A stretch of 64,000 nucleotides of DNA, taken from Alphaproteobacteria bacterium (GTDB lineage Bacteria; Pseudomonadota; Alphaproteobacteria; RF32; CAG-239). This document shows, piece by piece, positions 40,709 through 64,000 of the stretch. The translations under genes were made by a program, and so were the position numbers. The first letter of the stretch is position 1; each line of letters starts with the position of its first letter. The stretch is taken from the NCBI GenBank assembly GCA_017467515.1, contig JAFUSU010000004.1, positions 621-64,620 on the forward strand, written 5' to 3'. The notes beneath the pieces were generated by a model. It did not search any database and was not told the origin of the DNA. It saw only the letters and a program-made list of their open reading frames with translations.

Positions 40709-40785
<77 letters not shown>

Positions 40786-40984
40786 GCATAGCAAAATTTA
40801 TACTTGATGGTTTTCCTTTTTGCAAGACAGATTTTTATTTAACCTTCTTAATACGCATATTTGTCGTTATTTTTTATATATTCAAACTTGTTAATATCCG
40901 TCAAATGTCCTTGATTCCTTATTTTCAGCAATTATATTTTCTTGTACATATCAATTATTCTATTAAATTAAAAAAAGTATTATT

Positions 40985-42541: not shown

Positions 42542-42545
42542 AGAA

Positions 42546-42577
42546 AACCGCTGACAATGATGTCGGCGGTTTTTTTG
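42546..42577 (+). terminator. Rho-independent terminator after GH13 copy 1
   Basis: accgctgaca-atga-tgtcggcggt hairpin followed by T7. Confidence 0.55.
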
Positions 42578-42650
42578 TTTACTTTTTATGAAGAATATGC
42601 TAATGGTCAGGCATAAAATTATTATTATGGACAATTAAAACAGTATTATT

Positions 42651-47625: not shown

Positions 47626-47728
47626 CTTATTGTAATTGGTAATAAGTCGGTGTCCGTGCTTGATTATTTATTTTTCCAAATGTATGATAAAAAAAATTAT
47701 GCCAAAAAACGTTTTAGGAACTTTAAAA

Positions 47729-48352
47729 ATGAGTATAAAATACAAACTATGCATTGTTTTAATGGGAGCGTTGGTGTCAGGTTGTATGGGAACTTTGACG
47801 CAGCCTGTGAATTTACCGGATGATCCGGATTGTGTTGAAACCGTTCCTGCCGGACCGAGTGACGGAAAGTCTGAGTTTGTAAGTTATACAGATGTTGCAG
47901 CCGATTATCGTCAATACGGAGAAAGAACACCGCGAGATCAAAATGTTGTCAGAACGGGTGCCGGAAGCAATATGTCCGCATCTATTCCGCCGTCTGTTGA
48001 TGAAGAGGTTGAAGAGTATGATGTGACAGTTGCTGAGGAAGATGAAGACGGTGACGGCACTGGCCCCCAAAATCAAGAAGATCCTGTAGAAGATTGGTTG
48101 GCAGAAGAAGGGCAAAATTTAAAAGATCTTTTGAGTGAATGGAGCGATAGGGCCGGCTGGAGATTGGTTTGGAAGACAAATCGTAATTATCCTTTGACGG
48201 CAGGGGCGATGTTTAGAGGTCGGTTTGCAGATGCAAGTGCCGCTTTAATCAGAACATTTGCGCGAGCAAAGCCTGCTCCTATTGCTACCTTTTATAAGGG
48301 AAATAGAGTTTTAGTTGTTGAAACAATGGAGGACGAAAATGCTTTTGAATAA
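47729..48352 (+). CDS. PilL-like lipoprotein (TcpQ-like C-terminal domain)
   Basis: Lipobox LVSGC. C-terminal W-rich block WSDRAGWRLVWKTNRNYPLTAGAMFRGRFADASAALIRTF...NRVLVV resembling the TcpQ/PilL domain. Position corresponds to pilL in R64/PAPI-1 pilL-N-O-P-Q-R-S. Confidence 0.45.
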   Translation: MSIKYKLCIVLMGALVSGCMGTLTQPVNLPDDPDCVETVPAGPSDGKSEFVSYTDVAADYRQYGERTPRDQNVVRTGAGSNMSASIPPSVDEEVEEYDVTVAEEDEDGDGTGPQNQEDPVEDWLAEEGQNLKDLLSEWSDRAGWRLVWKTNRNYPLTAGAMFRGRFADASAALIRTFARAKPAPIATFYKGNRVLVVETMEDENAFE

Positions 48353-49958
48353 ATTGACAAGTAATGTCTTTGTTGCGACTTTAGGCATAATGTTGATGTC
48401 CTCTTGTTCCATCTCAACGGAAATGGACGCGACAATGGATCGTGATATAGATAAAACCACGGCTTTGAGTGAACGAGCAAAAGTTCCGGCAAAACCGATT
48501 GATGAAGATGTTGTTCGTGTTAAAAATGATATTTGGTTGGGTGATGTCAGTGAAATAGAGTATGACGGACAGCCCTTGCCTGCTAATTTTGAAACGAAGG
48601 ACGGTGTAACTTTAATCAGTAATCGTCCGATTACGCTTTATGAAATCGGTGATATGATTAGTAAAATTACCTCTTTGAGAGTAAGTTTTGCCGGTAATAT
48701 GGATCAAGAAGCTCGTAAGACGGCGACAAGCAATCGTCCTAATCCGAAGAATGTAAATGTTGATTGGACAGAGCCGAATAAAATGCTTGTTTCCTATAGA
48801 GGTCCTTTGAGTGGGTTGCTTGATGAAATTGGTTCTCGTTTCGGTATTTGGTGGAAATATGATAAAAAAGAAATCCATTTTTATAAAAATATTACAAGAA
48901 CGTTTGTTTTGTACAGTTTGCCGAGTGAGCCGAGTATGAATGTGACTGTTGGCGGTTCATCTAACGGTAGCGGTGCAAGCAACTCCTTAACAATGACCAA
49001 TGCGGCAAAACTTGAATTTTGGAAGAACATTGAGGAATCAATTAAGTCAATGATTGATTCAAAGGCAAAAATCAGTATGGACCCTTCAAATGGTACGGTT
49101 GCCGTGACAGCTGATCCGAATGATATTAAAAAGGTTGCTAAATTTATCAATGAACAAAACGCAAGATTGTCGCGTCAAGTTGCTATCAGCGTAAAAGTTT
49201 TGCAGGTTAATGTTGATGATAGTGACAAATTTAATCTCGACTTAGCTGCGGCCTTTAAGGATCCGGCAGGAGGAAGTTTCGGTATAGCGGGAGTTGCAGG
49301 TTCTGCTGATGTAACGGATAATTTAACTTTGAATTTGGTTCCGAAGAATGTTAGTATTGACGCGGCTATTCAGGCATTGTCTAAACAAACAACGACGACG
49401 CTTATTACAAGCGGTACTGTAACAACCTTAAACAATAAGCCGGCTCCGATTCAGGTTGTAAAGAAACAGAACTATATCTCTGAAATAACAAAAACAAATA
49501 GTGGCGGTGATTCTAATTACTATGATATTTCTACGGAAACGGAAGAAATAGAAACCGGCTTTACGATGAATGTCTTGCCTCGTATTTTGGAACACGGTCG
49601 TGTTATGATGATGTTTAATTTAACGTTATCTGATTTGTTGTCATTGGATAAAGTCAATCTTGATGATGGTTCATCTTCTGAGGAAGGAGGATCAGGCGGT
49701 CAATATATTCAAAATCCGGTTGTTGAATCCAGAGGTTTCTCTCAGGAAGTTGTTATGACATCGGGTCAATCTCTGGTCTTGACCGGTTACGAGCGTGTTG
49801 AAAATACAACGGAAAAGACAGGTGTCGGTTCGGCAACAAATTCTTTGCTTGGCGGTGGTGCTGACGCTGCAAAAGTAAGAAGTATGTTGGTGATTATTTT
49901 AACGCCGGTCGTTTTGGAATCTCCGTTAAATCCGGAATCGAGAATGCATAACATCTAG
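48339..49958 (+). CDS. PilN-like outer-membrane lipoprotein secretin (type IVb pilus type)
   Basis: Lipobox LMSSC. C-terminal secretin-like region (VVMTSGQSLVLTGYE ... TNSLLGGGADAAKVRSMLVIILTPVVLE ~ secretin GGL...PLLG...LLIFITP). About 540 aa like R64 PilN. 14-nt overlap with the upstream gene. Confidence 0.7.
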   Translation: MLLNKLTSNVFVATLGIMLMSSCSISTEMDATMDRDIDKTTALSERAKVPAKPIDEDVVRVKNDIWLGDVSEIEYDGQPLPANFETKDGVTLISNRPITLYEIGDMISKITSLRVSFAGNMDQEARKTATSNRPNPKNVNVDWTEPNKMLVSYRGPLSGLLDEIGSRFGIWWKYDKKEIHFYKNITRTFVLYSLPSEPSMNVTVGGSSNGSGASNSLTMTNAAKLEFWKNIEESIKSMIDSKAKISMDPSNGTVAVTADPNDIKKVAKFINEQNARLSRQVAISVKVLQVNVDDSDKFNLDLAAAFKDPAGGSFGIAGVAGSADVTDNLTLNLVPKNVSIDAAIQALSKQTTTTLITSGTVTTLNNKPAPIQVVKKQNYISEITKTNSGGDSNYYDISTETEEIETGFTMNVLPRILEHGRVMMMFNLTLSDLLSLDKVNLDDGSSSEEGGSGGQYIQNPVVESRGFSQEVVMTSGQSLVLTGYERVENTTEKTGVGSATNSLLGGGADAAKVRSMLVIILTPVVLESPLNPESRMHNI

Positions 49959-49978
49959 CAGTAAGAAAGGATAGAAAA

Positions 49979-51292
49979 TTGCTGGAGAATGCCAAATTAT
50001 ATGATAAGGATTATGATTCTAATGCAACCCGTTCATGGGGAACATCGACGGTTATTGCCGGTGTAACTTACTCTACGGGTTTGTTTTGGCAACCGTTGCA
50101 AAATAAAGACGATCCTTATACGGAAATAGAAGAATCTTCCGAGAGCGTTCAGGAAGGGGCTGACCTTTTTGTTATAAAACCTGGAAAAACGGTTCAATTT
50201 GGTATTTGCGCCAGTGGCGACGGCTATAAAAAAGGAACACAGTCTTTAGCTGTAACTGTTTCAACGGCGTTGTCCGAAAAATCATCTTTTGTCGCTGTGT
50301 TTAAGGTTGATAACGGATGGTGGTATTGTTGTGTTCGTAATGACATCATCTTGTCAGATGGGGATATGTTGTTTCTGAAAGAGGATGATGCCAAAGAACA
50401 GTTTATGTCTATGATGACGGTTCCTGATTGGGGACGCCGTATTGCACCCGCCGATTGGAATATTCCGGATACGGAAGACTTGCAATTAGAAGGAATTTTA
50501 TCAAGCGGCGTTAAAGCAAAATTACAAAAAATAAAAGCACTTAGAGGACCGAAGTTATACGCGATAATAGCTCTGTCTGCAGTTGTTAGTTTTTGGATTT
50601 TATCGTCTTTTGTGACAGATGTTTTGTTGGCCCCTAAAAGAGCCCCGATTGTCATTGCTCCGGTGAAGCCGAAAATTATGAAACCGGTAAAAAAAGCTCC
50701 GGAAATTAAGCCGTGGGAAAAAATAAAGGATCCGGAGCAAATACTGTCCTATTGCTATAGAGATGTAATGCTTTTTGTTAAAATTATGCCACCGGGATGG
50801 GAAATCGGAGGAGTGAATTGCGGAGAGAACGGAGCAACGGCTTCTTGGTCCAGAAATATTGGACGTATTTCTTGGATAGATAAAGCTTTAAATGAGTCTA
50901 AAATGTCTTTTTCCGCACGTTCTATTTCTGCAGATGGAAATACGCTTATTGCCAGTACCTATTATAAGCCGGTTCTTATAAAATCACCTCCGGTTTATAC
51001 GGAAATAGAACTCAAAAATATTGTAAATGACTTATTTCAGTCTTTGAGCCAGCCGATTTCGTTAACGGATACAACGGTTGTTGTGGAGCCTCCAAAGAAA
51101 ACAAGTCGTTTTCAAGAGAGTGAAGAGGAAGCGAAAGAATATAGAACGGTTAGTTTTACTTTTTCGGCGCCTCAAAATCCGCTGGTTTGGCAAGATATAT
51201 TAACAAAATTTTCAGGACTTGTAATGTATACTATAAAGTATGATACGAGAACAAGTATGTGGACTTATGAGGGAGCAATCTATGTTATATAA
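49979..51292 (+). CDS. PilO-position pilus-assembly protein (hypothetical; TTG start)
   Basis: 437 aa with one central TM helix (LYAIIALSAVVSFWILSSFV). Call is based on position and size (R64 PilO 431 aa) only. Confidence 0.35.
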   Translation: MLENAKLYDKDYDSNATRSWGTSTVIAGVTYSTGLFWQPLQNKDDPYTEIEESSESVQEGADLFVIKPGKTVQFGICASGDGYKKGTQSLAVTVSTALSEKSSFVAVFKVDNGWWYCCVRNDIILSDGDMLFLKEDDAKEQFMSMMTVPDWGRRIAPADWNIPDTEDLQLEGILSSGVKAKLQKIKALRGPKLYAIIALSAVVSFWILSSFVTDVLLAPKRAPIVIAPVKPKIMKPVKKAPEIKPWEKIKDPEQILSYCYRDVMLFVKIMPPGWEIGGVNCGENGATASWSRNIGRISWIDKALNESKMSFSARSISADGNTLIASTYYKPVLIKSPPVYTEIELKNIVNDLFQSLSQPISLTDTTVVVEPPKKTSRFQESEEEAKEYRTVSFTFSAPQNPLVWQDILTKFSGLVMYTIKYDTRTSMWTYEGAIYVI

Positions 51293-52811
51293 GACAAGCA
51301 ATATATTGAAAAATTCTTTTCTAACGATAGGATTAGCATATTTGCTAACCTCAACATGTTATGCGCAAAGCCCTTTAGATTTGGCCGATGATTCTATGCC
51401 GAAATTGTCTCTTGAGGAGGAAAACAGAGGACAAGAAGAGAATCAAACTCAAAATAATCAGGAAAGCAATACGGCTTCAGAACAAAATAGTGAAATTGCT
51501 CCCGTAGAAAACGGAGAAGGACCTTTATTCCCTGAAAATGGATCGGATAACACGCTGTCGCTTCAGAATCAACAGGAAGCACCTTTCTTTCCTGAAAATG
51601 CTTCGGATGACGCTTTTCCCCTTTCTGACCAACAAGAAAAGCCTTTGGGTTTAGATGAAAACGCTCTGGGCGGAGAAACAGGATCTCCTTTGGATGTGTC
51701 AAATACAGAGCTGAAAAATGAAAATCAGGAGATTTCCCCCAAAGAAGAACAGGATGCCGTATTAAATGCTTACAATAATTTTGTAGAGGCAACAGACAGA
51801 GAGGCCTTTGAAAATCCGCAGCAGAACAAAGGTTCGACCTTTGGTGACAAAATTATGGATCAGGTTAAAGAAGATTTGTTCTCGCAAATGGCAGATATTG
51901 AAAAGCAAACAAGTTTGTTGACTTTGGAATTAAAACGCGAAAAAATTAAAAATGAAATCGCGGCAATGCATGCAGAACGGCAAAAAGCAATAGAAGAAGA
52001 AAAAGAAAAACAACTTGAAAAAGAACGCCGTCAAAAAGAATGGGAAAGAGAGCAAGAAAGAAAACTTCTTGAGGAAAAACAAAAACTGAAAGAAACTGAA
52101 ATCAAGTTTGAAAAATTGCGTCAAGAACGTGTCTTGAAAGCATATAAAGAGAGTATGCTGAAAACAAATCAGGAATGGGTTGAATATAATGCGCGTCTTT
52201 ATAATCAATTAGTTAGAGAAGAAGAAGAACAAAATAATCTGCTTACAGTTCAAAAAGGGTATTTTAAGGATTTATCGGAAGGAATATCCGGCTTGGTTAC
52301 CGCGGCACAGCAAGCTAAAGAAAAATATAATCGGGAGATTGCAAACTTGCAAACTCAGGTTGCAATTTTGAAATCTAAGCTGGAAGCAGAAAAGAATGCA
52401 TTTGAAGAAAGCAAAAAAAGCGGTCCTAATCCTTTTGCTTTGGTAGAAGATGATCCTAATGCTTCAAAACAAAAAATTTCTGAAGAGTATGCCATTATGG
52501 AAATCAGTGGTAAAGGTGAAAAATTGGTAGCAAAGCTGATAAACAAAAATGGCGGAACTTTTATGGTTAAACCCGGAACAATTTTGAATACGGGGCATGT
52601 TATTGAAGAAATCACTCAAACGTACATTGTAACAGACAAAGGCGGTATAAAGGATTACTTATACTTCTCTGCCGGCGGTATTCTGGATAAAGAGCCGACC
52701 AAAACGATTAACGCTGCGCCAAAAGCAAGTGTTGCATCGCAAGAAAATGAGGGCGCAGAAATAGAAGCCACACCGGTACCGAGCTTAAGAGAAGGTATGT
52801 TTGTAGAGTAG
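51282..52811 (+). CDS. PilP-position protein: signal peptide, Glu/Gln-rich repeats, long E/R/K-rich helix and a PilP/GspC-HR-like C-terminal beta domain
   Basis: Signal peptide ending TSTCYAQS. 20-aa tandem repeat (PLFPENGSDNTLSLQNQQEA / PFFPENASDDAFPLSDQQEK). ER/K-rich helix KAIEEEKEKQLEKERRQKEWEREQERKLLEEKQKLKETE. C-terminal EISGKGEKLVAKLINKNGGTFMVKPGTILNTGHVIEEI. Confidence 0.4.
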   Translation: MLYKTSNILKNSFLTIGLAYLLTSTCYAQSPLDLADDSMPKLSLEEENRGQEENQTQNNQESNTASEQNSEIAPVENGEGPLFPENGSDNTLSLQNQQEAPFFPENASDDAFPLSDQQEKPLGLDENALGGETGSPLDVSNTELKNENQEISPKEEQDAVLNAYNNFVEATDREAFENPQQNKGSTFGDKIMDQVKEDLFSQMADIEKQTSLLTLELKREKIKNEIAAMHAERQKAIEEEKEKQLEKERRQKEWEREQERKLLEEKQKLKETEIKFEKLRQERVLKAYKESMLKTNQEWVEYNARLYNQLVREEEEQNNLLTVQKGYFKDLSEGISGLVTAAQQAKEKYNREIANLQTQVAILKSKLEAEKNAFEESKKSGPNPFALVEDDPNASKQKISEEYAIMEISGKGEKLVAKLINKNGGTFMVKPGTILNTGHVIEEITQTYIVTDKGGIKDYLYFSAGGILDKEPTKTINAAPKASVASQENEGAEIEATPVPSLREGMFVE

Positions 52812-52815
52812 GAAT

Positions 52816-54492
52816 ATGGCAGAGGAAGATGAAAAAAAAGAAATAGAGGCAGAAAATGCCGCTTCAGAACAACAGAAGTCGGCAGAGGCTTCGTCTTCCT
52901 CTGATACAGATATAGAAAAAACAAGCCTTATTCAATCACTTTTTACGGCAGGAAATAAACTTCTTACCTTACCGAATTCCCAAACAATTTCTGTCGGTGA
53001 TGATACGCGCCGACTATTAGCGTTATTTTCAGACGGACGTTTTTTAGTTGTCGAAACACACAAATTCGACGGCCGTGTGATGAGCTTTCAGGTTCTGGCT
53101 AAACGAAAAGGTTTGCGCTTCGGAAAGCCTATTTTTATCAGCCAAAATGAACTGAATGCAATATATGCATATGGTGAGCGTTCAGCGCCTGTTGAGTTGT
53201 CAGAAAGAGAAGTTGAAGAAAACCAACTTCAAATGCAACGTGACTTTGTTAATGTTGTTGCCAGAGCAGCCTCCGTAAAGGTATCGGATATTCACGTCGT
53301 TGTTGCAGATAGTACGCAAATTATGTTTAGAGTTAACGGTATGATGCAAACCGTTATGGAATACGATGCACAATGGGGAGAATCTTTTGTTCGTGCGGCA
53401 TTTGCTTCTGCCGATATTTCAGACTCTAACTATACGCAAAACGAATTTCAGGGCGCACAAAAATTAGGTTCTACACCTTTAAGAGGTTCAAACGGTAAAT
53501 TGATGTTGCCGCACAACGTGTTGGCAATTCGTTTACAATTTAATCCGATAGCTTTTGGGTCGCAATATTTGGTTATGCGTTTGTTGTATGCCGATGATAA
53601 TCCGGATGGAAGTGGCGATTTGTCTTCACTGGGATTTGGAGAATATGAAGAAAATTTGTTCTATCGATTGCGCTCTGTTCCCACGGGATTAAGCATTATT
53701 GCCGGTCCGACAGGATCAGGTAAAAGTACGACTTTGCAACGCAATATGATCAAATTATTGCAAGAGAAAAATTATGAACTCAATCTGATTACGGTTGAAG
53801 ATCCGCCGGAGTATCCAATTCCCGGTGCTCGGCAGATGCCGGTGACCAACGCAAATAATGAAGAAGAAAAAGATGAAATGTTTACAAAGGCTCTGTCAGC
53901 CGCATTACGTTCAGACCCTGACGTTATTATGGTTGGTGAGATACGATCATTGTCTGCGGCAGAATTAACATTCAAAGGCGCCTTATCAGGACACGGCGTT
54001 TGGTCAACTTTACACGCAAACTCCGCTCCTGCAATCATTACCCGTTTGCGAGATATGGGAATACAAAAATTTATGTTGGCAGATCCGGAATTAATGAAAG
54101 GATTAATTTCTCAACGTTTATTTAGAAGATTGTGCCCGCACTGCCGTAAAAGTGTTAAGGATATTTTGGATCATCCGGCTGTAAAACGTTTGAAAATTGC
54201 TCTGGGTGATTTTGGCTTAGAGAATGCATTTGTGCGAGGTCCCGGATGCAAATATTGCGATAATCGCGGCGTTAAAGGTCGTTTATGTGTTCCTGAAATT
54301 ATATTGCCCGATGCGACGTTTTTGGAATTAATGATTGAGAGCCAAACACGTAAGGCGATTGATTATTGGACGAGCGATTTAAACGGGAGAACCTTAAAAG
54401 ATGCTGCAATCGAGCGTATGCTTAAAGGCTTGATAGATTTAGAAGAAGTAGAGCGCTGGTGTGGTTTGTTAGACCAACGACCGGTATATTAG
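52816..54492 (+). CDS. GspE/PilB-family secretion ATPase (PilQ-like)
   Basis: Walker A GPTGSGKST, Asp box/Walker B DPDVIMVGEIR, His box VWSTLHANSA and tetracysteine CPHC...CKYC. 558 aa. Confidence 0.85.
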   Translation: MAEEDEKKEIEAENAASEQQKSAEASSSSDTDIEKTSLIQSLFTAGNKLLTLPNSQTISVGDDTRRLLALFSDGRFLVVETHKFDGRVMSFQVLAKRKGLRFGKPIFISQNELNAIYAYGERSAPVELSEREVEENQLQMQRDFVNVVARAASVKVSDIHVVVADSTQIMFRVNGMMQTVMEYDAQWGESFVRAAFASADISDSNYTQNEFQGAQKLGSTPLRGSNGKLMLPHNVLAIRLQFNPIAFGSQYLVMRLLYADDNPDGSGDLSSLGFGEYEENLFYRLRSVPTGLSIIAGPTGSGKSTTLQRNMIKLLQEKNYELNLITVEDPPEYPIPGARQMPVTNANNEEEKDEMFTKALSAALRSDPDVIMVGEIRSLSAAELTFKGALSGHGVWSTLHANSAPAIITRLRDMGIQKFMLADPELMKGLISQRLFRRLCPHCRKSVKDILDHPAVKRLKIALGDFGLENAFVRGPGCKYCDNRGVKGRLCVPEIILPDATFLELMIESQTRKAIDYWTSDLNGRTLKDAAIERMLKGLIDLEEVERWCGLLDQRPVY

Positions 54493-54501
54493 GAGTAAGA
54501 A

Positions 54502-55617
54502 ATGGCAGAAATCAAAGGAAGACCCACGAAAAAAAATTTAAGAAAAATTAGTGCCGTAGAAGTAAAATACGCACAGATGGTTTGTTTGATGTCAAATAAA
54601 GTACGCTTAAAAATATATCGCAAGCTGGCATCATTAATGGCAAACCGCTTTTCTTTAATGGATGCGCTGGATTTGCTGTATAACGGGGCCAGTGATAATG
54701 GAAAAAAGCCTTACGAACCAATGGCTATAGCAATCGTTTCCTGGATGAAAATTTTACAAAACGGTCTTTCTTTTGCCGATGCCTTAAAAGGCTGGGCGCC
54801 GGGGCGTGAACGTTTAATGCTTTCAACAGGTGATGTTTCAAATTTGGAAAGTGCATTATTAAACCTGATTAAAGTAACGGAAGGTTCGACCAAAATGATT
54901 CGTCCTATTATCGGTGCAATTGCTTATCCTGCCTTTTTGATGATGATGTCTGTTTTGATTTTGTATGCAATAGGTGTTTATATGGTGCCGCCGATGCAAG
55001 AGGCTGCCCCAACAATGAAATGGACGGGAATGGCGGCCGATTTGGTTGGTGTTTCTGAGTGGATTCAAGTCTATTGGGCGATTGCTTTTGCCGCATTACC
55101 TGTTGTTATGATGGTTATATATTTCACTATAGGAATTTGGATTGGTAAAGTAAGAGTGATATTTGACAGATTTCCACCGTGGTCTTTATATAAAATCTTT
55201 ATCGGTATCAGTTGGCTACTGGCAATGGCAGCATTAATTAAAGGCGGTACGCCGATATCAAGTGCAATGAGTGCATTAAGACGTGATGCCAACCCTTATT
55301 TGAGAGAAAGAATAGATAAAGCATTGCGTTATATTAATAACGGTGACAACTTGGGACAGGCTCTTTATAAAACGGAACTTGAGTTTCCGGATAAGGAAAT
55401 CATCTCGGATTTGGCTGTTTATTCTGAATTGGATAATTTTGAGGAAGCAATAGATAATTTAGCAAATGAGTGGCTGGAAGAGTCTGTTTATATTATTGAA
55501 CAAAGAGCCTCTATTTTAAATATGTTGGCATTGTTGTCCATCGGTGGTATTATTGCGTGGGCAGTAATGGGCGTATTTGATATGCAAGATCAAATTACCA
55601 GCACAATGGGTAAATAA
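54502..55617 (+). CDS. GspF/PilC-family polytopic inner-membrane platform protein (PilR-like)
   Basis: 371 aa with three or more TM helices and duplicated cytoplasmic helical domains. Immediately downstream of the GspE-like ATPase, as pilQ-pilR. Confidence 0.7.
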   Translation: MAEIKGRPTKKNLRKISAVEVKYAQMVCLMSNKVRLKIYRKLASLMANRFSLMDALDLLYNGASDNGKKPYEPMAIAIVSWMKILQNGLSFADALKGWAPGRERLMLSTGDVSNLESALLNLIKVTEGSTKMIRPIIGAIAYPAFLMMMSVLILYAIGVYMVPPMQEAAPTMKWTGMAADLVGVSEWIQVYWAIAFAALPVVMMVIYFTIGIWIGKVRVIFDRFPPWSLYKIFIGISWLLAMAALIKGGTPISSAMSALRRDANPYLRERIDKALRYINNGDNLGQALYKTELEFPDKEIISDLAVYSELDNFEEAIDNLANEWLEESVYIIEQRASILNMLALLSIGGIIAWAVMGVFDMQDQITSTMGK

Positions 55618-55618
55618 A

Positions 55619-56158
55619 ATGAGAAATAAAGAGAAATTTATAATGTATATTTGGCTTTGCTCACTGGTAGCTATCGTTGCTGTTGGTATATTATTGTGCT
55701 TGCAGCGCCCGTCAAGCGAAATAGTGCAAGCAAACAGAGAGATATTGTCAACGGCAGATAAAATTCGCTCTTTTTACAGAAACAGACCTGACTATTGGGG
55801 GTTGGATACCAATGATGTTATCAGTCACAAGCTTTATGCAGGACATAAAAAAGGTCAAGTAATAGTCAATAATTTAGGGCAGGAGGTTGTGATTGGCAGT
55901 GATGCTGAGGGAACAAAAATAATGCCCGGACAAAGAATTTTTACCATAAGCTATCTGAAAACAAATAAAAAGCAATGTATAGAATTAGCTTCTTTCCGTT
56001 GGCAAGAAGAAGGGAAGTTAGGTCTGATATCGTTCAAGGTAAAGAACGGTTCCGGTGAATATGAATTTAGCTGGGGGAATAAAGGATTGCCATTGAGCAG
56101 AAACTATGCTAAACAATATTGTGAGGAAGAAAATAATTTGTCTTGGACATTTGAATAG
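55619..56158 (+). CDS. Pilin-like protein (non-canonical N-terminus)
   Basis: About 179 aa from the ATG at 55619 (the listed ORF starts at 55577). Short basic N-terminus MRNKEK, then a 22-aa hydrophobic helix, then a globular domain with a C-terminal Cys pair (QCIELASF...YCEEENN). No G/F-x-x-x-E prepilin cleavage motif. Confidence 0.35.
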   Translation: MRNKEKFIMYIWLCSLVAIVAVGILLCLQRPSSEIVQANREILSTADKIRSFYRNRPDYWGLDTNDVISHKLYAGHKKGQVIVNNLGQEVVIGSDAEGTKIMPGQRIFTISYLKTNKKQCIELASFRWQEEGKLGLISFKVKNGSGEYEFSWGNKGLPLSRNYAKQYCEEENNLSWTFE

Positions 56159-56252: not shown

Positions 56253-56543
56253 ATGAGAGAGATGATTCTAAAAGCAGTTGCAAATCCTCCAAAGATACTT
56301 TGGGGGCCCTTTTTGCCGACACTGCTTAATTTAGGAATTCAATTTCCCTTTATGTTTATGTGTATGGGTATATGGAACGTAAATCCGTTAATTTTTATAG
56401 CAACAATCGGCCTTGGTCATATTTTTGTGATTTTTTTGGGAACAAAAGATCCGCATATTTCCACAATGATACAAGCTTATGGGCAAGGACGAGTTTTGAG
56501 TACAAACCTTTATAAATGTAAGGGGAATAAATTTGCGCCCTGA
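56253..56543 (+). CDS. VirB3/TrbD-family type IV secretion protein
   Basis: 96 aa with two TM segments. ILWGPFLPTLLNLGIQFP and HIFVIFLGTKDPHISTMIQAY match the VirB3 family pattern. 11-nt overlap with the following ATPase gene. Confidence 0.65.
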   Translation: MREMILKAVANPPKILWGPFLPTLLNLGIQFPFMFMCMGIWNVNPLIFIATIGLGHIFVIFLGTKDPHISTMIQAYGQGRVLSTNLYKCKGNKFAP

Positions 56544-58968
56544 TGATTTTGACTTTTTTTCCATATTTGTTCAAAGTCTGAGCAGTATGGAGGTTATTGT
56601 AGCGGTTATCGGATTCGTTGCGGCAGCCGCATTTGCCGGTGTTTGGGTTACAAAATTCGGACATTATATTTTACCTGAACCGCATGAATCGCGGGTAGCG
56701 GATTTTTTACCGTTTACAAAATTGATGGCCGACGGCATTACCATTCGGTGCTATAATGGTTCATTTGCCCGTGTTTTTAAAGTAGAAGGTGTCGATCTGA
56801 GCTTTGTGACGGAAGAAAAAAGTATGTCAATGATGGAAGCTCGCAAGCTCTGGATTGACAGTATGGGCGAATTACAGGTTACATGCCGCGTTATCACTCT
56901 GCGCGATAAATCTGAGATGGAGGAGGATAAGGGCGATTTTGGAAATCCGATATTGGCGCAAGTTTCTGAAACATGGCATAATACCCTAGACAGAATATAT
57001 AGCAATACACACTATATTATTTTATCCGTAGCGGATCGCGCAGATGCTCTGAAAGATTTAAATTATACTTCACAGTCTTTAATGGCAACGTTAAATGATT
57101 ACGGGGTAAAACCGATGTATGAAACGGAGGACAGTCCGGCCTCTGAAAGTCCTTTTTCCGTATTCAGCCGTATATGTAGCCCGATTAGCAAACCTGAGCC
57201 GAAAGTCAGAGGAAGTGAAGGGTATGAGCTGAACGAAATGTTGACGGCAGATCATATCCATTTTACGGAAGAACAAGGGGTTATTAAGTTCTTTTCGGGA
57301 ACAAAAGAAAAATATGCAATTGTTATGGGGATCAGAACACCCGGCGATTATATGGATGAAAATATGATAGCGGGGTTGCTGTCAATTAACTGCGAGTTGA
57401 CCTTGTTGCATAATATCAGTCCGATGTTTAAGCCTAAAGCCAGAGCTTTATTAATGCAACAACAAAGAATGGCAACGTCAACAAGCTTTTCTGCTGATGT
57501 CGTTGCTCAATACAGTGAAGCTTTGTCTGCAATAGAAGATAGCGATGCCGATTATCAGGCTCTGACAGAATATGCGATGGATATTATTATCCGTGGTGAC
57601 AGTATGGAGGAGGTTGATTTCGGAGAAAGTGAAGTTCAAAGAATTTGCCGATTGTTCAGTGTAACCCCTGTTCGAGAAGGGTGGGTTGCACAAGCTGCAT
57701 TCTTTAACCAGTTTCCGACATACGATATTTTCCCGAGAACTTATCGCTATTTATCGCGCGTTGTTGCTATGGCGGTATGTTTTGATAAGCCGGCAGAAGG
57801 GTTTAGTAAAAGTGACTGGGGTCCGGGGGCAATCAGTATCTTTAGAACAACAGCCGGATCCGCCTATCGATTCCAATTCCATGTTTCAAGCGAAGATGCT
57901 GCAGTGGCACACTGCTGTATTATAGGTCCGACCGGTCAAGGTAAAACAACATTACTGACGTTTTTAGCCGGTCAAGCAATGCGTCACAAAGATTTAAAAG
58001 TATTCTTCTTTGATCGTCACCGTGGTGCTGAAATATTTACCAGAGCAGTTCAAGGGGCTTATATCGGTTTTGATGGTGATGAGAAGAATGTTTCATTGAA
58101 TCCGTTTGCCTGCGAAAATAATCCGAATAACAGAGCATTTCTTCGCCGTTGGTTGAAAGCCATTACAATGGTAGATGATGCATTATCGGAAAGAGAAATC
58201 GGACGAGCGGTTACAACTTCTTTTGATTACTTGAAGCCGGAAGAAAGAATTTTAAAAAATCTGTATAAGAGCTGTTTTTCACCAACGGGTAATATGCGTC
58301 GCGAACTCTATCGTTGGATTAATCCGGAACAATACGGTAATATCTTCAATTCTGAAACAGATAGCTTGGATTTACGTTCAAAACGTTTTACCGCATTTGA
58401 TTTCACGCATATTTTTGAAGATGAAACTTTAGCTCCGGCCGTTATCAGCTATATTATGCATCGTATTCAGTCCGAAGTAGGTGATGCAGGTGTTCCGTCA
58501 TTAATTATGATTGATGAAACGGCGCCGATGTTAAAACATCCGATGTTCCGTGATTACTTTATGATCGGTCTGCAAGAGGGTCGTAAAAAACGCCAAGCTT
58601 ATTTATGTGCATTCCAACAGCCTAATATTATTGATAAACTCGGTGTAGGTGAAGTTATTCGCGGTCAATGTCAGACGATTATTTTCTTCCGTAATCCGCA
58701 AGCAATGCCGGAGGATTATGCAAACTGGAATCTGACACAACGAGAAATAGACTTTATTTTCGGTAAGACATATCGAGATTTCCCGTATGCCATCTTATTA
58801 TCGCGTCCGGCAACGGGTGAGTCTGTTATTTTAGACGTTGATTTAAGCGGATTAGGACCGTATTTACGATTGTACAATTCAAGTCGCAAAAATGTATTAT
58901 TGGTTCAGGATTTAATAAAGGAGTATGGAGAAGCAAACTTTGTTACAAAATATTTAAATATTGCGTGA
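56533..58968 (+). CDS. VirB4/TrbE/CagE-family type IV secretion ATPase
   Basis: 811 aa. N-terminal TM helix. Walker A CIIGPTGQGKTT near residue 465. Walker B LIMIDETAP near 660. Size and motif spacing typical of VirB4. TTG start translationally coupled to the VirB3-like gene. Confidence 0.85.
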   Translation: MRPDDFDFFSIFVQSLSSMEVIVAVIGFVAAAAFAGVWVTKFGHYILPEPHESRVADFLPFTKLMADGITIRCYNGSFARVFKVEGVDLSFVTEEKSMSMMEARKLWIDSMGELQVTCRVITLRDKSEMEEDKGDFGNPILAQVSETWHNTLDRIYSNTHYIILSVADRADALKDLNYTSQSLMATLNDYGVKPMYETEDSPASESPFSVFSRICSPISKPEPKVRGSEGYELNEMLTADHIHFTEEQGVIKFFSGTKEKYAIVMGIRTPGDYMDENMIAGLLSINCELTLLHNISPMFKPKARALLMQQQRMATSTSFSADVVAQYSEALSAIEDSDADYQALTEYAMDIIIRGDSMEEVDFGESEVQRICRLFSVTPVREGWVAQAAFFNQFPTYDIFPRTYRYLSRVVAMAVCFDKPAEGFSKSDWGPGAISIFRTTAGSAYRFQFHVSSEDAAVAHCCIIGPTGQGKTTLLTFLAGQAMRHKDLKVFFFDRHRGAEIFTRAVQGAYIGFDGDEKNVSLNPFACENNPNNRAFLRRWLKAITMVDDALSEREIGRAVTTSFDYLKPEERILKNLYKSCFSPTGNMRRELYRWINPEQYGNIFNSETDSLDLRSKRFTAFDFTHIFEDETLAPAVISYIMHRIQSEVGDAGVPSLIMIDETAPMLKHPMFRDYFMIGLQEGRKKRQAYLCAFQQPNIIDKLGVGEVIRGQCQTIIFFRNPQAMPEDYANWNLTQREIDFIFGKTYRDFPYAILLSRPATGESVILDVDLSGLGPYLRLYNSSRKNVLLVQDLIKEYGEANFVTKYLNIA

Positions 58969-59049: not shown

Positions 59050-61743
59050 ATGCATAAACGGATATTTGTTAAGGTGACGATTCTTAGCGCAATCGGTGTT
59101 TTAGGCTTTATCTCTCCGAGTTCGGCAACGTGGCCGACACTTGATATGTCTGCTATCCAGCCGACAATACAAAATGTACAACAAGAGGTACAATCAGTTA
59201 AGCAACAAATTGAATCCTGTAAAGAGTTACAAAAAATTAAAACAGCTATCGGGGATGCCAAAGAAGCGGCTAGCAAATTTAATGAAGATGTTGTTCAAAA
59301 GGCTAAAAAAGAAGCAGAAAAGATAAAAAAAGAAGCAGAGAAAGTAAAAAAGATTCAGGACGATATCAAAAAAGCCAAAGAAGAGTATGAAAAGAAAAAG
59401 AAAGAATTTGCAGAATATAAGCAAAAACTGGAAGAAACAAAAGCCGCTGTTGACAGTAAAATCAAAGAAGCTCAACAAATGGCATCAGATGCCCAATCTG
59501 CAGTAGAAGGAGCAAAGGGCTTAGCATCGCAGGCAATAGCAGATGCCCAATCTCAAGTCGGTTCTGTGACATCAGATATCAGTGGGACTGTAGGAGCTGT
59601 ACAAAACAGAGTTAGCAATATCTCTGCATCGCATACAGAATCAACGGTTGATCAAAGAAGTAATGTCGGAGGAAATGTTGCTTTACCTCAAAGCAGAAGG
59701 GGAGAAATTCCATCCGGTACCGCTAATGACTTTTCCCGCACGTCTTTTAATTTGAGTGGAAACGGAGAGGCTGATGTCGGTCAAGTCGTAAGCCCTATTC
59801 AAAATAGAACAGGAGGCACAGCTCCTGCCGGCGTAAGTATGAGAGAAAGAGCAGAGGAATATGCGATGCCTTTATCTGTCCGAGAGAGCTTTGTACAAGA
59901 GGATATCCTTGCAGAACCGGCAGGTATTACTCAAGAAAGTAAAGAAGATAAAATTGTTAACCCAGAGATAGAGGCAGAGGTTGAAGATATTAAAAGAATA
60001 GCCTCAGAACAAGGGACAGACGTAGCGACAAGGCTGTTAAAAACATCTATAGATGAAGCTGTCAGAAATAAGGATATTGCCAGACTTGATGCACTCTCTA
60101 AAATAGAAACAAGTGACATTATTAATTCAAACAGCAAAAGATATGAAGAAACATCGGTAAAAGCAGAGGGAAGAAGAGCCTTCAGTAGTCCGATAGAAGA
60201 AATGAGTGTTGAAAAATTGAAAAAACAAGCGCTGGAAGCTAAAGAAAATCTTCGTCCGACAGTAGAGGAAAAGGTAACAACACCGGAAACAAAGCCGATT
60301 TCAGAATTTAAGGTGCCAGCAAAGACAATAGAAAATGTTGAAAAAGCAATAATACCTGCTCGTGAGCAAACAATAACAAATGCTCCGGTTGTGAGCAAAG
60401 TGCAAGCTGTTCGACCTCAAAATGTTGAGGTTCCTTCGCCCCTAAAAGCTCCGATTCAGGGTTTGCAGGAAAGAAAACCTTTTACGATGCCGACATCGGA
60501 CTTGGAGAAAAATTCATTTTTAATTGAGGAAAAAAAAACAGCACCAAATCGTAGCAAATTAAGTTTCGCCGATACATTGCGTTTTGCAAGTATAACCGGA
60601 GGAGAATGTACGGATTATAATAATGTTATTCAAACCAAAGACGGAACGGTTATTATTATTCCTGAACTTTTGGCAAAAGAATGTTGCCTGAAAGCTGAAA
60701 ATTTAACGGATTTAAATTTAATTCGCGATTGCGCAAAGAAGCTGGTAATAGAATCAAAGGGATTATTGGAAATTGACGAAGCAAGTTTGGAAAATTGCGG
60801 AGGAGAAGGAATTTATGATGCTTCCTCGGAACAATGCCTCACGCGTACAGATACTATGTTGGGACAGGAAAAATTAGGCGTTTATAATGAGATTGTTGCA
60901 CAGCAAGGTGCAAATGCGGCAGCAGAGGGGATAATAGACAAAGCAAAAGCCAGCAACTATGTTAAAGATTTTTTTGAACCTTATAAAGAAAAAATAGCTA
61001 AAATTCAAAGTAAGGGGGGAGGCGATACGTCAGGATCATCAAACAAAGATGCGACCTCTCTTTTAACTTTGACAAATCAACAAATGATGTATCTGTTGAA
61101 TATGATCAGAAGAAATTACACCACGACACTGGCGGATATATCGTTACGAGGTCTGGGGTCTGTTACGGAAAATGCTGTATTGGAAGATGAAAAAGGGGTA
61201 AATAGCACTCAAGAGTACGGTAATACGGTTGTTCGTCAGGAAGATGCCGTGGTAGAATATCCTATTTTGCCGGAAAACATAGCAATAAAGTGCTCAATTA
61301 AAGCAAAAGAATTGGGAGAAGATGGTTTTAATCAAATTTCACAGGCAGATCCGGCAATAACATCTTTGGCAGACTGTTACCGTCAGGTTGTTAAAGATAT
61401 AAATGTCACCAATGAAACAGAAATTGATGAGGCTCAAAAATTTATGCAATTGACGCAGTATCAGGAAAATTTAAATACCTTGGAAAAGGCACTTTATCAA
61501 AAGGTAAAAAGTTCAAAGTACGAGGAAACGCTTGATAATGCGGAAGAAACAAATAACAATGCAACAACTACCAGAAAAGGCTATTCGGCTCTGTTTCAAA
61601 CAGAAACGGAATTGGCAAGAATTGCAGATGACATGGTAAACGTTTATGCCAGTAAATTAACTTACACAGCCATTAAAGCTTTATCAAAATTAGAAACGCC
61701 GACAACGCCTTCAATTCAGAAAACCGGTGGAACGGAGGGATAG
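59050..61743 (+). CDS. Secreted coiled-coil protein, paralog A (about 897 aa) with a Cys-rich C-terminal domain
   Basis: Signal peptide MHKRIFVKVTILSAIGVLGFISPSSA from the ATG at 59050. Lys/Glu/Ala/Gln-rich helical N-terminus. Conserved block EIEAEVEDIKRIASEQGTDVATRLLKTSIDEAVRNKDIARLDALSKIE shared with paralog B. Cys-rich region CTDYNN...CCLKAEN...CGGEG...C. Confidence 0.6.
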   Translation: MHKRIFVKVTILSAIGVLGFISPSSATWPTLDMSAIQPTIQNVQQEVQSVKQQIESCKELQKIKTAIGDAKEAASKFNEDVVQKAKKEAEKIKKEAEKVKKIQDDIKKAKEEYEKKKKEFAEYKQKLEETKAAVDSKIKEAQQMASDAQSAVEGAKGLASQAIADAQSQVGSVTSDISGTVGAVQNRVSNISASHTESTVDQRSNVGGNVALPQSRRGEIPSGTANDFSRTSFNLSGNGEADVGQVVSPIQNRTGGTAPAGVSMRERAEEYAMPLSVRESFVQEDILAEPAGITQESKEDKIVNPEIEAEVEDIKRIASEQGTDVATRLLKTSIDEAVRNKDIARLDALSKIETSDIINSNSKRYEETSVKAEGRRAFSSPIEEMSVEKLKKQALEAKENLRPTVEEKVTTPETKPISEFKVPAKTIENVEKAIIPAREQTITNAPVVSKVQAVRPQNVEVPSPLKAPIQGLQERKPFTMPTSDLEKNSFLIEEKKTAPNRSKLSFADTLRFASITGGECTDYNNVIQTKDGTVIIIPELLAKECCLKAENLTDLNLIRDCAKKLVIESKGLLEIDEASLENCGGEGIYDASSEQCLTRTDTMLGQEKLGVYNEIVAQQGANAAAEGIIDKAKASNYVKDFFEPYKEKIAKIQSKGGGDTSGSSNKDATSLLTLTNQQMMYLLNMIRRNYTTTLADISLRGLGSVTENAVLEDEKGVNSTQEYGNTVVRQEDAVVEYPILPENIAIKCSIKAKELGEDGFNQISQADPAITSLADCYRQVVKDINVTNETEIDEAQKFMQLTQYQENLNTLEKALYQKVKSSKYEETLDNAEETNNNATTTRKGYSALFQTETELARIADDMVNVYASKLTYTAIKALSKLETPTTPSIQKTGGTEG

Positions 61744-61747
61744 CAAG

Positions 61748-63505
61748 ATGAGCAAAAAATTTGTTATGGTTATCCTTTCTTTGATGGTTGCTTTTTCTCT
61801 ACCTGCCCAAGCGGATATTGAATTTGTGCAAAAAGTTATGGGTAAAGCAGAAGGTGTTCAAAAAAAAGCAACGGCCGCTCAAGAAAAAATAATGGCCTAT
61901 AAAAAGAAAATGGAAGATTATGCCAAAAAGGCTAAAGGCTATATAAGTGATGCACAATCAATGGCTAATGAAGTAAAAGGAGCCATAAATGACGTGCAAT
62001 CAATGGCTAATGCCGCATTGAAAGGAGATTTTTCTTCTTTGAGTGTTATTCCGTCAGACTTAAAAACGGCTATGGCAGATGTCAAAAAAATGAAAGATGA
62101 TGTTAAAAACAAAGTTAATGACGCTAAACAGATGGCTGCCGATGCTAAAGCTGCGACCGAAGGGGCAAAGGCTTTGGCAAAACAGACGGTTGAAGATGCA
62201 AAATCTCAAGTCAGTAGTGTTAAAGATGCTACCCAAGGGGCCGTAAATTCTGTTCAAAATACAACAAAGGAAGTAACCGGATCATCTTTAAATAATGGTT
62301 TGCCAAAAACAGAGCGCACCGGTTCTTCCCCAATCTCAACGGTATCTGTTCACAATAACATAGCATCAGGACCAATACAATCTGTTACGAATACGCCGGT
62401 TAAAGCAACAACGAGAGAAAATATTTTTCCGGTAACAAATAACGGTATTAATAACATATCGACGGCGACTGTCAGAACAGATGTTGCAGTTCCAAGAATA
62501 ATCGGCCAAGAACAGCAAAGTCAAGTTGTTGCAGAAGGTATTTCCGGTATATTAAGCCCTGCTTCCGAAAAAATTGCGGAAGAAAAAATACCTCTTGATA
62601 CGGAAATTAAAGCAGAAATAGATGAAATAAAGGCAACAGCCAAAGAACAAGGTGTTGAAGATGCCAGAAAACTACTGGAGATTTCAATCGATGAAGCAAT
62701 CAAAAATGAAGATACTGCGAGATTGGATGCCTTATCAAAAATAGAAAAAGAAGATATCCTCAATGCCGGCAATAACGAGAATAAAACAGGTGGAAGAAGA
62801 GCCTTTACCAATTCGGCGGAAAACATCGCAATAGAGGGGCTGATAACAGAAGCAAAAGATGCAAAAGAAAAATTGCGTTCGGTTGCTCCGGAAAGCACAT
62901 TGAAAGTGCCTCAAAAAATAGAGCCTGAAATTATCGGAATAACAGAAAAAGTGTCAACACAAGAGCGTTCCCTTTCCGGTAAAAAAGAAATTGCACCTGT
63001 TAAGACGATGCCAACACAGGAGATCAAAGGTCCTTTGCAAAAAAATTCTTTTCTGTTTGAAAAAGATAAGCCTCTGCGGGTGAAAACATCTTATAGCGAA
63101 ACGTTGAAATTTGCCGATGAAGCAAGTGATGTTCCTGATTCGGAAGATACTTCTGCGGCTGTAACGGCAACGCTTCTTCCTGTTGAGAGTTCCGGAGATT
63201 CTGTTGAACAAGCAAAAACGGCTAAAGAAAAAATTCAGGAATATATGCGTGATGAGTTGACAGCCCTCTATGCAACAGGTTTTACCGTTCGCACCAATAT
63301 GTTGAAAGAAGCTGATAACAGAGATATCGATATGGAAGCTGAAGATCAGATGTGGCAGGAAACAATTCTCAAAGCAGAAGAATGTATTACCAGAATTGCA
63401 AAATTTCACGTTATTGAAGCAATGCTGTCGTCTTATAAATATTCCGAATCTTTGCAGGATTTGGTTGTAAAACAAACAGAAGAAGCTGAAAGCGAAGGTG
63501 AGTAA
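61748..63505 (+). CDS. Secreted coiled-coil protein, paralog B (about 585 aa)
   Basis: Signal peptide MSKKFVMVILSLMVAFSLPAQA. Same N-terminal helical repeat style and the conserved DTEIKAEIDEIKATAKEQGVEDARKLLEISIDEAIKNEDTARLDALSKIE block. Confidence 0.6.
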   Translation: MSKKFVMVILSLMVAFSLPAQADIEFVQKVMGKAEGVQKKATAAQEKIMAYKKKMEDYAKKAKGYISDAQSMANEVKGAINDVQSMANAALKGDFSSLSVIPSDLKTAMADVKKMKDDVKNKVNDAKQMAADAKAATEGAKALAKQTVEDAKSQVSSVKDATQGAVNSVQNTTKEVTGSSLNNGLPKTERTGSSPISTVSVHNNIASGPIQSVTNTPVKATTRENIFPVTNNGINNISTATVRTDVAVPRIIGQEQQSQVVAEGISGILSPASEKIAEEKIPLDTEIKAEIDEIKATAKEQGVEDARKLLEISIDEAIKNEDTARLDALSKIEKEDILNAGNNENKTGGRRAFTNSAENIAIEGLITEAKDAKEKLRSVAPESTLKVPQKIEPEIIGITEKVSTQERSLSGKKEIAPVKTMPTQEIKGPLQKNSFLFEKDKPLRVKTSYSETLKFADEASDVPDSEDTSAAVTATLLPVESSGDSVEQAKTAKEKIQEYMRDELTALYATGFTVRTNMLKEADNRDIDMEAEDQMWQETILKAEECITRIAKFHVIEAMLSSYKYSESLQDLVVKQTEEAESEGE

Positions 63506-64000
63506 TGAGAAAACGGATTTCTTTAACAGCTTTGATGTTTTTTAGTTTGTTCTCTTTTGTCGTTCAGGCGATGCCTAAAATAGACGCCGCTAAAATAGTG
63601 CAAAAAGTGCAGGAAGAGGTTGGAAAAGTTCAAGAGGAAGCGCAAAAAATTCAAACGCAACTTGGAAATATGAAGCAACTTCAGCAAATTCAAGGAGCGA
63701 TGGAAGAAGCAAAAAAAATGAAAGGAAAAATAGACAGCGCTAAGAAGACGGTTTCCGATGTTCAAAAAAAAGTTGGAGAAGTTCAGCAAGGTGTCGCAGA
63801 TGCACAAAAAGCGGTTGCCGATGCTCAGAGTTCTGCAACCGGAGCACTGGGCGATATACAAAACGGTCTTGGCGGAGCCGGAGCTCAACAATTGTTGGCA
63901 TTGCAAACAGAACAAGCTCAAGCACAACAAAACCTGACGAATGATTTACAAGCTCTTGATGATGAAATGACAGCACAGATTAAACCGCTTGAAGATAATC
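63505..64000 (+). CDS. Secreted coiled-coil protein, paralog C (5' partial; runs off the window)
   Basis: ATG at 63505 overlaps the TAA of paralog B (TAATG). Signal peptide MRKRISLTALMFFSLFSFVVQA. Open frame to position 64000 with the same VQ..V..AQK helical repeats. Confidence 0.55.
   Translation, partial: MRKRISLTALMFFSLFSFVVQAMPKIDAAKIVQKVQEEVGKVQEEAQKIQTQLGNMKQLQQIQGAMEEAKKMKGKIDSAKKTVSDVQKKVGEVQQGVADAQKAVADAQSSATGALGDIQNGLGGAGAQQLLALQTEQAQAQQNLTNDLQALDDEMTAQIKPLEDN

Follow-up and report, generated by a model that had tools for sequence, protein, structure and literature searches.

Four exported, rapidly evolving protein families encoded between the VirB4 and VirB8 genes of an alphaproteobacterial type IV secretion operon

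Overview

The stretch of DNA analysed here (contig JAFUSU010000004.1 of an Alphaproteobacteria bacterium, assembly GCA_017467515.1; the whole 64,000 nucleotides are referred to as the window) runs at its 3' end into the operon of a VirB-type type IV secretion system (T4SS). Its VirB5/VirB6 interval is taken up by four families of exported proteins that evolve rapidly and carry no annotation; we refer to them as A, B, C and D, occupying slots 1 to 4 between VirB4 and VirB8. This arrangement is what is new here, and the literature searched contained no description of the system. We put at about an even chance the reading that A–D are subunits of the stalk, tip or adhesin kind, related to VirB5 and peculiar to this lineage, in an elaborated VirB-type T4SS encoded on the chromosome. 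The four slots are conserved across a clade of uncultured Alphaproteobacteria from gut and rumen, within which the system is inherited, the four genes having separated anciently and stayed in fixed positions. T4SSs have been studied mostly in pathogens and on plasmids, and the parts that contact the target (VirB5, the pilus tip, adhesins) are the least understood and the most variable. As the four families change far faster than the core of the machine, they are likely the specificity determinants of whatever the system contacts. The finding is descriptive, and the organism is uncultured.

Four exported proteins follow VirB4

The T4SS genes within the window, all on the same strand, are:

56253..56543, + strand: VirB3-like protein, 96 amino acids (aa), the first T4SS gene in the window
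56533..58968, + strand: VirB4 ATPase, 811 aa, TTG start (Pfam CagE_TrbE_VirB, E = 1.7e-13)
59050..61743, + strand: protein A, slot 1, 897 aa, beginning 81 bp past VirB4
61748..63505, + strand: protein B, slot 2, 585 aa (the public gene call starts 6 codons later and gives 579 aa)
63505..64000, + strand: protein C, slot 3, the first 165 of 458 aa, the rest lying past the window end

A first-pass annotation, made from the window alone, had described three consecutive signal-peptide genes after VirB4, and the coordinates and cleavage sites of A, B and C agree with it. Its count of "at least 3" is right for the window and becomes four on extension of the contig, which places a fourth exported protein, D (1433 aa), next after C and beyond the window; the VirB4–VirB8 interval then holds these four exported proteins and no further copies. 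The order is VirB3, VirB4, A, B, C, D, VirB8 (251 aa), a 62-aa lipoprotein, a second VirB8 (247 aa) and VirB9, with gaps that are tiny or with neighbouring genes overlapping, the C start for instance running into the B stop as TAATG. Protein A is identical to hypothetical protein IJ545_00585 of a metagenome-assembled genome (MAG) labelled Alphaproteobacteria bacterium, and the VirB4 sequence of the window is present on 130-kb scaffolds labelled XIEF21-1 in a metagenome study. The VirB3-like protein has a membrane hairpin and shares 59-86% identity with its counterparts directly upstream of VirB4 across related loci; a Pfam scan gave it no match, and it was assigned to VirB3 because of its size, topology and position.

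Each of A, B and C opens with basic residues and a single hydrophobic stretch, followed by a cleavage site of the AXA type (the slash marking the cut: SSA/TW in A, AQA/DI in B, VQA/MP in C); in the family alignments of slots 2 and 3 the Ala at this site reaches at least 90% conservation. In all four proteins the signal peptide is the sole hydrophobic segment, the highest mean elsewhere over 19 residues on the Kyte-Doolittle scale being <1.1. With no later membrane segment A–D are soluble exported proteins and a polytopic VirB6 is ruled out, in agreement with the earlier judgement that the genes are too soluble for VirB6. We considered D as a lipoprotein and rejected this, since the LAAC box of this genome's D is not conserved in the consensus of its family.

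The same four slots recur in related species

With VirB4 as the anchor, 59 distinct related loci were fetched from the one-genome-per-species GTDB collection, with VirB4 63% to 92% identical to that of the window. Most are labelled Alphaproteobacteria, proteobacterium or Pseudomonadota MAGs (57/59), the named sources being gut, rumen and faeces, and labels among the related records include Candidatus Scatocola, 'Azospirillum sp. UMGS63' and Rhodospirillales. Two loci (L036, L051) were deposited as Lactobacillaceae / Lactobacillales MAGs despite an alphaproteobacterial, Gram-negative T4SS; these labels are probably binning contamination.

Nearly all 59 species loci have four slots in constant order between VirB4 and VirB8, each with its own length class and family signature:

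Slot 1 (A): 350-930 aa
Slot 2 (B): 216-317 aa
Slot 3 (C): 380-630 aa
Slot 4 (D): 1130-1650 aa

More distant loci carry 5-7 genes in the VirB4–VirB8 interval and retain the last three slots. Apart from one module that A and B have in common, likeness between slots is confined to the signal peptide and an N-terminal motif.

Architecture of A–D and the origin of B

The main features mapped within A and B are:

59128..59145, + strand: TWPTLD motif at the mature N-terminus of A, resembling the VirB5 N-terminus
59962..60132, + strand: helical block of A, aa 305-361 (IDEAVRNKDIARLDALSKIE), conserved and common to A and B
60562..61740, + strand: C-terminal region of A, two homologous modules, aa 505-715 and aa 716-897 (self-comparison E = 1e-4)
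62102..63115, + strand: A-like module in B, aa 119-456 (tblastn match to A aa 134-513)

Protein A consists of a signal peptide (aa 1-26), the mature N-terminus TWPTLD, a coiled coil at ~aa 37-188, a variable linker that is probably disordered, and the features listed above. Within the N-terminal motif, P29 and D32 reach 90% conservation or more across the 38 aligned slot-1 sequences. Residues 10-56 gave weak DUF4141 matches (E = 0.01-0.06), which we treat as a weak hint only, as we do a DUF6827 match (E = 7e-4) that fell below the cut-off. The helical block at aa 305-361 is kept in six slot-1 proteins (P0001-P0006) and missing from the 592-aa orthologues, and in the AlphaFold model it forms four short helices with a predicted local distance difference test (pLDDT) score of 55-66. 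An earlier claim of a Cys-rich C-terminal domain in A proved correct, with 8/9 cysteines falling within aa 520-776, and the region is an internal duplication, with long helices coming after a conserved Cys pair in either module; within the slot-1 family, conservation of C545 and C561 is 90% or higher. A single-sequence PDB search with this C-terminal region found no relative. Word-indexed search of 5.8 billion proteins returned only 8 homologues for A, and a word-indexed search with B returned 5.

Protein B has a signal peptide (aa 1-22), the mature N-terminus DIEFVQ, the A-like module (aa 119-456) and a slot-2 core (aa 457-585); in C, too, aa 1-22 form the signal peptide, and the mature chain begins MPKID and contains a coiled coil, while the mature N-terminus of D reads DPVID. 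Pairwise alignment of A and B (E = 1e-42, 34% identity over 394 columns) includes the block IDEAxxNxDxARLDALSKIE, as the first-pass annotation had reported. It had also seen a similar N-terminal style in three proteins, which is true of the signal peptide and the coiled coil; C lacks the A/B module and matches A and B in nothing beyond its signal peptide and the coiled coil near its N-terminus (E = 5e-9 and 2e-3). The A/B module shares 61-64% nucleotide identity, with third codon positions 33-50% identical, in keeping with the earlier view of an old rather than a recent duplication; a recent duplication or gene conversion was rejected on the third-position identity.

The ends of B tell of a different relationship. 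Its first ~118 aa and last ~130 aa align with 222-aa slot-2 orthologues (P0082, P0124), and in the sister species, whose VirB4 is 91-92% identical, the slot-2 protein is 226 aa (L012) or 232 aa (L059) and lacks the module. In a HMMER scan of 1.84 billion representative proteins the slot-2 family had 95 members, nearly all of 215-285 aa. Because the ends align with slot 2, the middle aligns with A and the sister species lack the module, B is, judged by its sequence, a slot-2 protein (normally ~220-300 aa) that has acquired the central module of A, in an event that was not recent.

A–D are the most variable part of the operon

Median identities, calculated over 32 loci with the window genome as reference, and ratios of nonsynonymous to synonymous substitution rates (dN/dS), calculated from one pair of close strains, were as follows:

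VirB4: median identity 84%, dN/dS 0.03
62-aa lipoprotein: median identity 71%
VirB3: median identity 69%
VirB8: median identity 54%, dN/dS 0.09
Slot 4 (D): median identity 32%, dN/dS 0.22
Slot 1 (A): median identity 29%, dN/dS 0.27
Slot 3 (C): median identity 29%, dN/dS 0.17
Slot 2 (B): dN/dS 0.50

The variability that had been suspected from the window is thus evident across species, the slots 1, 3 and 4 sharing a median of 29-32% identity against 84% for VirB4. Even between the nearest species VirB4 is 91-92% identical and slot 1 merely 29-40%. Within A, synonymous divergence (dS) from a close strain (L081) reaches ~0.30 over aa 181-360 (window 59590-60130), against 0.02-0.19 in the other windows of A and 0.035 in VirB4, which suggests that this segment was imported by recombination and that the gene is a mosaic. 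The pattern of rates across the slots fits exposed or weakly constrained regions and is not proof of positive selection.

Likeness to VirB5 is weak and uneven

The VirB5 family (VirB5/TraC/TrwJ/TrbJ, PF07996) supplies the minor pilus or stalk-tip subunit of P-type T4SSs, where it assembles as a pentamer on VirB6. A–D resemble it in position, following VirB4 and preceding VirB8, in carrying a Sec signal peptide each and in their all-alpha predicted secondary structure (from low-confidence AlphaFold models); the A, C and D families may resemble it further in the mature N-terminal motif, and slot 2 resembles it in its size (216-317 aa). They differ from it in being four proteins rather than one, three of which are 2-6 times larger and contain coiled coils, disordered linkers and Cys-pair modules.

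The mature N-termini of plasmid VirB5 proteins read GIPVID, QVPVLD or DIPVID, from which, taking five plasmid VirB5s rather than a curated definition, we framed the rule x-hydrophobic-P-V-hydrophobic-D; the likeness seen in A and C is of the form hydrophobic-P-x-hydrophobic-D. The pattern [hydrophobic]-P-x-[ILVMFT]-D was found at the mature N-terminus of 36/38 slot-1 proteins; the strict pattern was found in 6/53 slot-3, 5/56 slot-4 and 0/46 slot-2 proteins (all of these counts being given without a chance expectation). The B family begins with DIExxQ, in which the Pro and Asp of the motif are missing. With signal peptides removed beforehand, hhalign comparison against a VirB5 profile gave 67.6% for slot 3 over 103 C-terminal columns (score 41.8; reversed control 0.1%, score 14.3), so that the best VirB5 likeness of any slot lies in the C-terminal half of C, outside the window. 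Slot 1 gave 11.3% (score 31.3; reversed control score 16.9), the part aligning weakly (hhalign 11%) with the C-terminal helices of VirB5 being the distal C-terminal helices of A. Reversed-sequence controls against VirB5 fell at 0.1-0.3%. Between slots, hhalign linked slot 2 to slot 3 at 70% and slot 1 to slot 2 at 60%.

TraC (PDB 1R8I) is an elongated three-helix bundle with a small helical appendage. The low-confidence model of a slot-2 orthologue has a long N-terminal helix, several short ones and two long C-terminal helices, an order of secondary-structure elements that is compatible with the TraC bundle and not specific to it.

A number of results weigh against VirB5 ancestry, or against the stalk, tip or adhesin reading that builds on it. 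PF07996 did not match A, B or the C fragment at E <=0.01, nor full-length C and D or the families of slot 1 (38 members), slot 2 (45, then 70) and slot 3 (53) at E <=1, and the same profile matched the true VirB5 of the nearest plasmid system (Erythrobacter) at E = 6.8e-7. PDB profile searches with four family alignments returned coiled-coil noise and no VirB5, TraC or TrwJ chain; a single-sequence PDB search with D was likewise uninformative, and Pfam and NCBIfam scans of single proteins and families gave nothing beyond coiled-coil noise. In hhalign slot 2 (0.4-0.7%) and slot 4 (0.1%) did not rise above the control, the reversed-sequence control of the slot 1–slot 2 link was high at 23%, and the VirB5 profile was built from 5 sequences only, taken from VirB4 neighbourhoods, tblastn with plasmid VirB5 having matched only 2 records. 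AlphaFold models built on shallow alignments were unusable (mean pLDDT 41.5 for A, 42.6 for the 222-aa slot-2 orthologue), and Foldseek of one low-confidence model against the PDB found nothing below E = 0.3. Selection gives no firmer ground: the dN/dS of A–D (0.17-0.50) does exceed that of VirB4 (0.03), as the suspicion of diversifying surface proteins would have it, yet every gene-wide value is <1, and the local windows >1 (1.4-2.4 over aa 91-270 of B) depend on very few substitutions between two strains, which is no proof of positive selection. Nor was a docking partner seen: no polytopic VirB6-like open reading frame was found within 10 kb of VirB4 in the 59 loci, and no polytopic VirB6 was found in the 59 kb of window upstream.

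The proposal that these genes are VirB5-like stands in part, on position, N-terminal motif and the slot-3 alignment, and falls short on the missing PF07996 and PDB matches and on slot 2, which stays <1%. Likeness to VirB5 is weak and uneven, and membership of A–D in the VirB5 family is not demonstrated; by these alignments VirB5 ancestry would be moderately supported for the C family, weakly for the A family, and only indirectly for the B and D families. If the link were confirmed, the range of VirB5 architectures would extend from ~220 aa to >1400 aa.

Comparison with plasmid relatives and known systems

By VirB4 the closest plasmid systems (36-38% identity) are those of Erythrobacter aureus (NZ_CP031358) and Microvirga sp. 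VF16 (pMVF16-3). At this position both have VirB5, then a soluble helical protein of 430-450 aa, then a PCAC lipoprotein as here; they differ in having two interval genes rather than four, only one VirB8 and a VirB10 of normal size, and in carrying a relaxase and VirD4 close by. The VirB5 of the Erythrobacter plasmid is Pfam-positive and begins GIPVID, and QVPVLD is found in a VirB5-like protein without a Pfam match. The soluble 430-450-aa proteins (L071:17294-18655, L072:17932-19218) have no Pfam match and stand where other plasmids have a polytopic VirB6; the Microvirga one carries a PIID motif past its signal peptide. More distant plasmids (Roseibium, Shinella, Paracaedimonas) have a VirB6 with 5-6 transmembrane segments directly after VirB5, and the genuine VirB6 of other plasmids likewise shows 5-6 segments by the same Kyte-Doolittle method.

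In the Helicobacter pylori Cag T4SS, an elaborated system of the effector type, the exported helical accessory proteins CagL, CagI and CagH are encoded together, the giant repeat-bearing VirB10 is CagY, and the island holds the VirB6 homologue CagW. The system described here, which we liken to Cag by description only, also has several exported helical accessory proteins and a giant repeat VirB10, in a different gene order. CagL is regarded as a divergent VirB5 (PMC9259494). In the rvh T4SS of Rickettsiales, VirB3-VirB4 is followed by 4-5 large divergent genes that are polytopic VirB6/TrbL paralogues, and VirB5 is absent (PMC2653234). The two systems are alike in being vertical, chromosomal alphaproteobacterial T4SSs, in the run of large divergent genes after VirB3-VirB4 and in a duplicated VirB8. 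They differ in that the run here has no membrane spans and no TrbL match, full-length C and D giving none at E <=1; here, too, a lipoprotein gene lies between the two VirB8 copies, and VirB9, VirB10 and VirB11 come after.

Proposed mechanism and rival explanations

We propose, by analogy with VirB5 at the stalk tip of the R388 system (PMC9259494), a mechanism for the anchoring of A–D. Sec would export each protein and the signal peptide would be cleaved, after which the mature N-terminus (the motif in A, C and D, DIExxQ in B) and the C-terminal helices would dock into the periplasmic stalk or pilus tip, which is the role of VirB5 in canonical systems. This would leave the coiled coils, linkers and Cys-pair modules facing outward, as variable surfaces for contact or adhesion, so that A–D may lie at the tip or cell surface and serve in adhesion. 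In the R388 structure a VirB5 pentamer sits at the stalk tip, with fold similarity to the pore former HlyE and an N-terminus that projects in the same way (PMC9259494). A bolder form of the proposal, which we consider rather improbable, is that the clade, and perhaps its nearest plasmid relatives, has no polytopic VirB6 at all, and that A–D form a heteromeric stalk or tip replacing both the VirB6 and the VirB5 pentamers. If this were so, then together with the VirB2 fusions and the giant beta-flower VirB10 of related genomes (see below) it would amount to a structurally new outer apparatus for contact, within the gut, with the host or with neighbouring cells.

Four other explanations were weighed, and all are judged less likely than stalk, tip or adhesin subunits. 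That A–D are a periplasmic scaffold or stalk standing in for VirB6 alongside VirB8, hidden from the surface and variable because of low constraint, is unlikely, and it has several observations behind it: the failure to find a VirB6-like gene near VirB4, the soluble 430-450-aa proteins of the closest plasmids in the place of a VirB6 with 5-6 segments in distant ones, and change between strains that falls mostly in linkers, with gene-wide dN/dS <1. Yet the role of VirB6 needs membrane spans, which A–D lack, and VirB6 (and VirD4) may simply lie elsewhere in the genome, as the rvh genes of Rickettsia are scattered in islets (PMC2653234). An identity of 29% where VirB4 is 92% identical is moreover more extreme than an internal scaffold would lead one to expect, the internal VirB8 being 54-68% identical. 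There is a lower probability, one we would call slight, that A–D are secreted products which the system would release or deliver, either effectors or alpha-helical proteins that form pores or act on membranes. Two ClyA-family toxins, NheL1 (E = 5e-4) and MakE (E = 7e-4), are among the weak matches of the slot-3 profile, the MakE NCBIfam model matches C at E = 0.67, and assembled VirB5 itself resembles HlyE, with a pore-former-like N-terminus (PMC9259494); the toxin matches, however, lie in coiled coils beside tropomyosin, SMC and myosin matches of like strength, T4SS effectors are normally cytoplasmic and without Sec signals whereas A–D all have them, and fixed positions in mid-operon suit parts of a machine better than its cargo.

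A third rival is the model of the first-pass annotation, in which repeated duplication produced a tandem array whose paralogs go on diversifying, as the amplified trwJ and trwL genes do in Bartonella. In Bartonella Trw the amplified trwL and trwJ-I-H units are tandem copies of multi-gene units and clearly paralogous, and their variability is thought to serve surface interaction. As there, more than one gene occupies the VirB5 position per locus; here the genes are non-repeated, mutually dissimilar and orthologous. The 390-aa module common to A and B, the one overall design of all four proteins (signal peptide, N-terminal motif, coiled coil), the internal domain duplication in A and the 5-7 interval genes of some distant loci do recall repeated duplication. 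Against it stand four distinct positions that are orthologous in constant order in nearly all of the 59 species, each with its own length class and family signature, the weak likeness between slots in mature-protein profiles, the nature of the A/B module as a lineage-restricted insertion into a protein normally of 220-300 aa, and the related loci, in which no repeated gene units or multi-gene units were found. Synteny thus largely refutes such an array, to which we attach very little probability. Synteny also contradicts the idea, hardly credible to us, that A–D are generic coiled-coil surface or envelope proteins, or accessories of a type IVb pilus, unrelated to the T4SS. In the window the PilN-O-P-Q-R genes do immediately precede the T4SS genes on one strand with them, and database matches are to coiled-coil families only, but in most relatives the pilus cluster is flipped with VirB2 in between while A–D still lie between VirB4 and VirB8, and at their start and stop codons A–D overlap the neighbouring T4SS genes or all but touch them.

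Other genes of the operon and its surroundings

The operon set is unusual in combining a giant repeat VirB10, VirB2 fusions in relatives, a duplicated VirB8, no VirB6 found nearby and constant linkage to a type IVb pilus cluster. The two VirB8 copies with the 62-aa lipoprotein gene between them are seen at L004:20154-21953, and the SPCAC motif of the lipoprotein recurs in small lipoproteins that three alphaproteobacterial plasmid T4SSs encode at the VirB7 position:

L071:18908-19114; L072:19382-19558; L075:7637-7804: small plasmid lipoproteins with SPCAC, at the VirB7 position

Many species of the clade (L008:19991-21634; P0036, P0056 and others) have a VirB9 with a C-terminal SPOR (peptidoglycan-binding) domain, called from precomputed Pfam matches of which part are marked weak or faint. 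Past VirB9, two related genomes (L073, L079) encode a beta-flower repeat protein, then a giant VirB10 and VirB11. Both giants (L079:11641-20761, L073:11599-21602) carry beta-flower repeats (PF21785, E down to 1e-158); the first, of 1305-1545 aa, has its sole membrane span at the N-terminus, and the second, of 1746-2325 aa, ends in a TrbI/VirB10 domain (E = 5.4e-33), which makes it the VirB10 and is reminiscent of CagY.

Further upstream in the window (40709-44225) two alpha-amylase family genes (518 and 524 aa) stand in tandem behind a tRNA-Arg (CCT) gene. No integrase and no shift in composition was found between this region and the secretion cluster, so that a recent insertion of the cluster as an island looks unlikely. 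Directly upstream of VirB3, a type IVb pilus cluster (window 46078-56158, + strand) encodes a 515-aa protein, a TcpQ-like protein, the PilN secretin, PilO, a PilP-like protein (523 aa, with an E/K-rich coiled coil), the PilQ ATPase, PilR and a membrane-anchored protein of 171-193 aa. In most related species this cluster is still adjacent and lies in the opposite orientation, upstream of the VirB2 genes, which indicates that the linkage of pilus and T4SS is conserved and its orientation is not. The 64-kb window was found to contain neither VirB2 genes nor the ~950-aa VirB2-hairpin protein that accompanies them elsewhere. In most related species two VirB2/TrbC genes and this ~950-aa protein precede VirB3 (e.g. 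L008:3311-7025), and the latter, with a VirB2-like two-helix hairpin set among a signal peptide, coiled coil, Cys-rich region and long low-complexity tail, appears to be a pilin-fusion protein.

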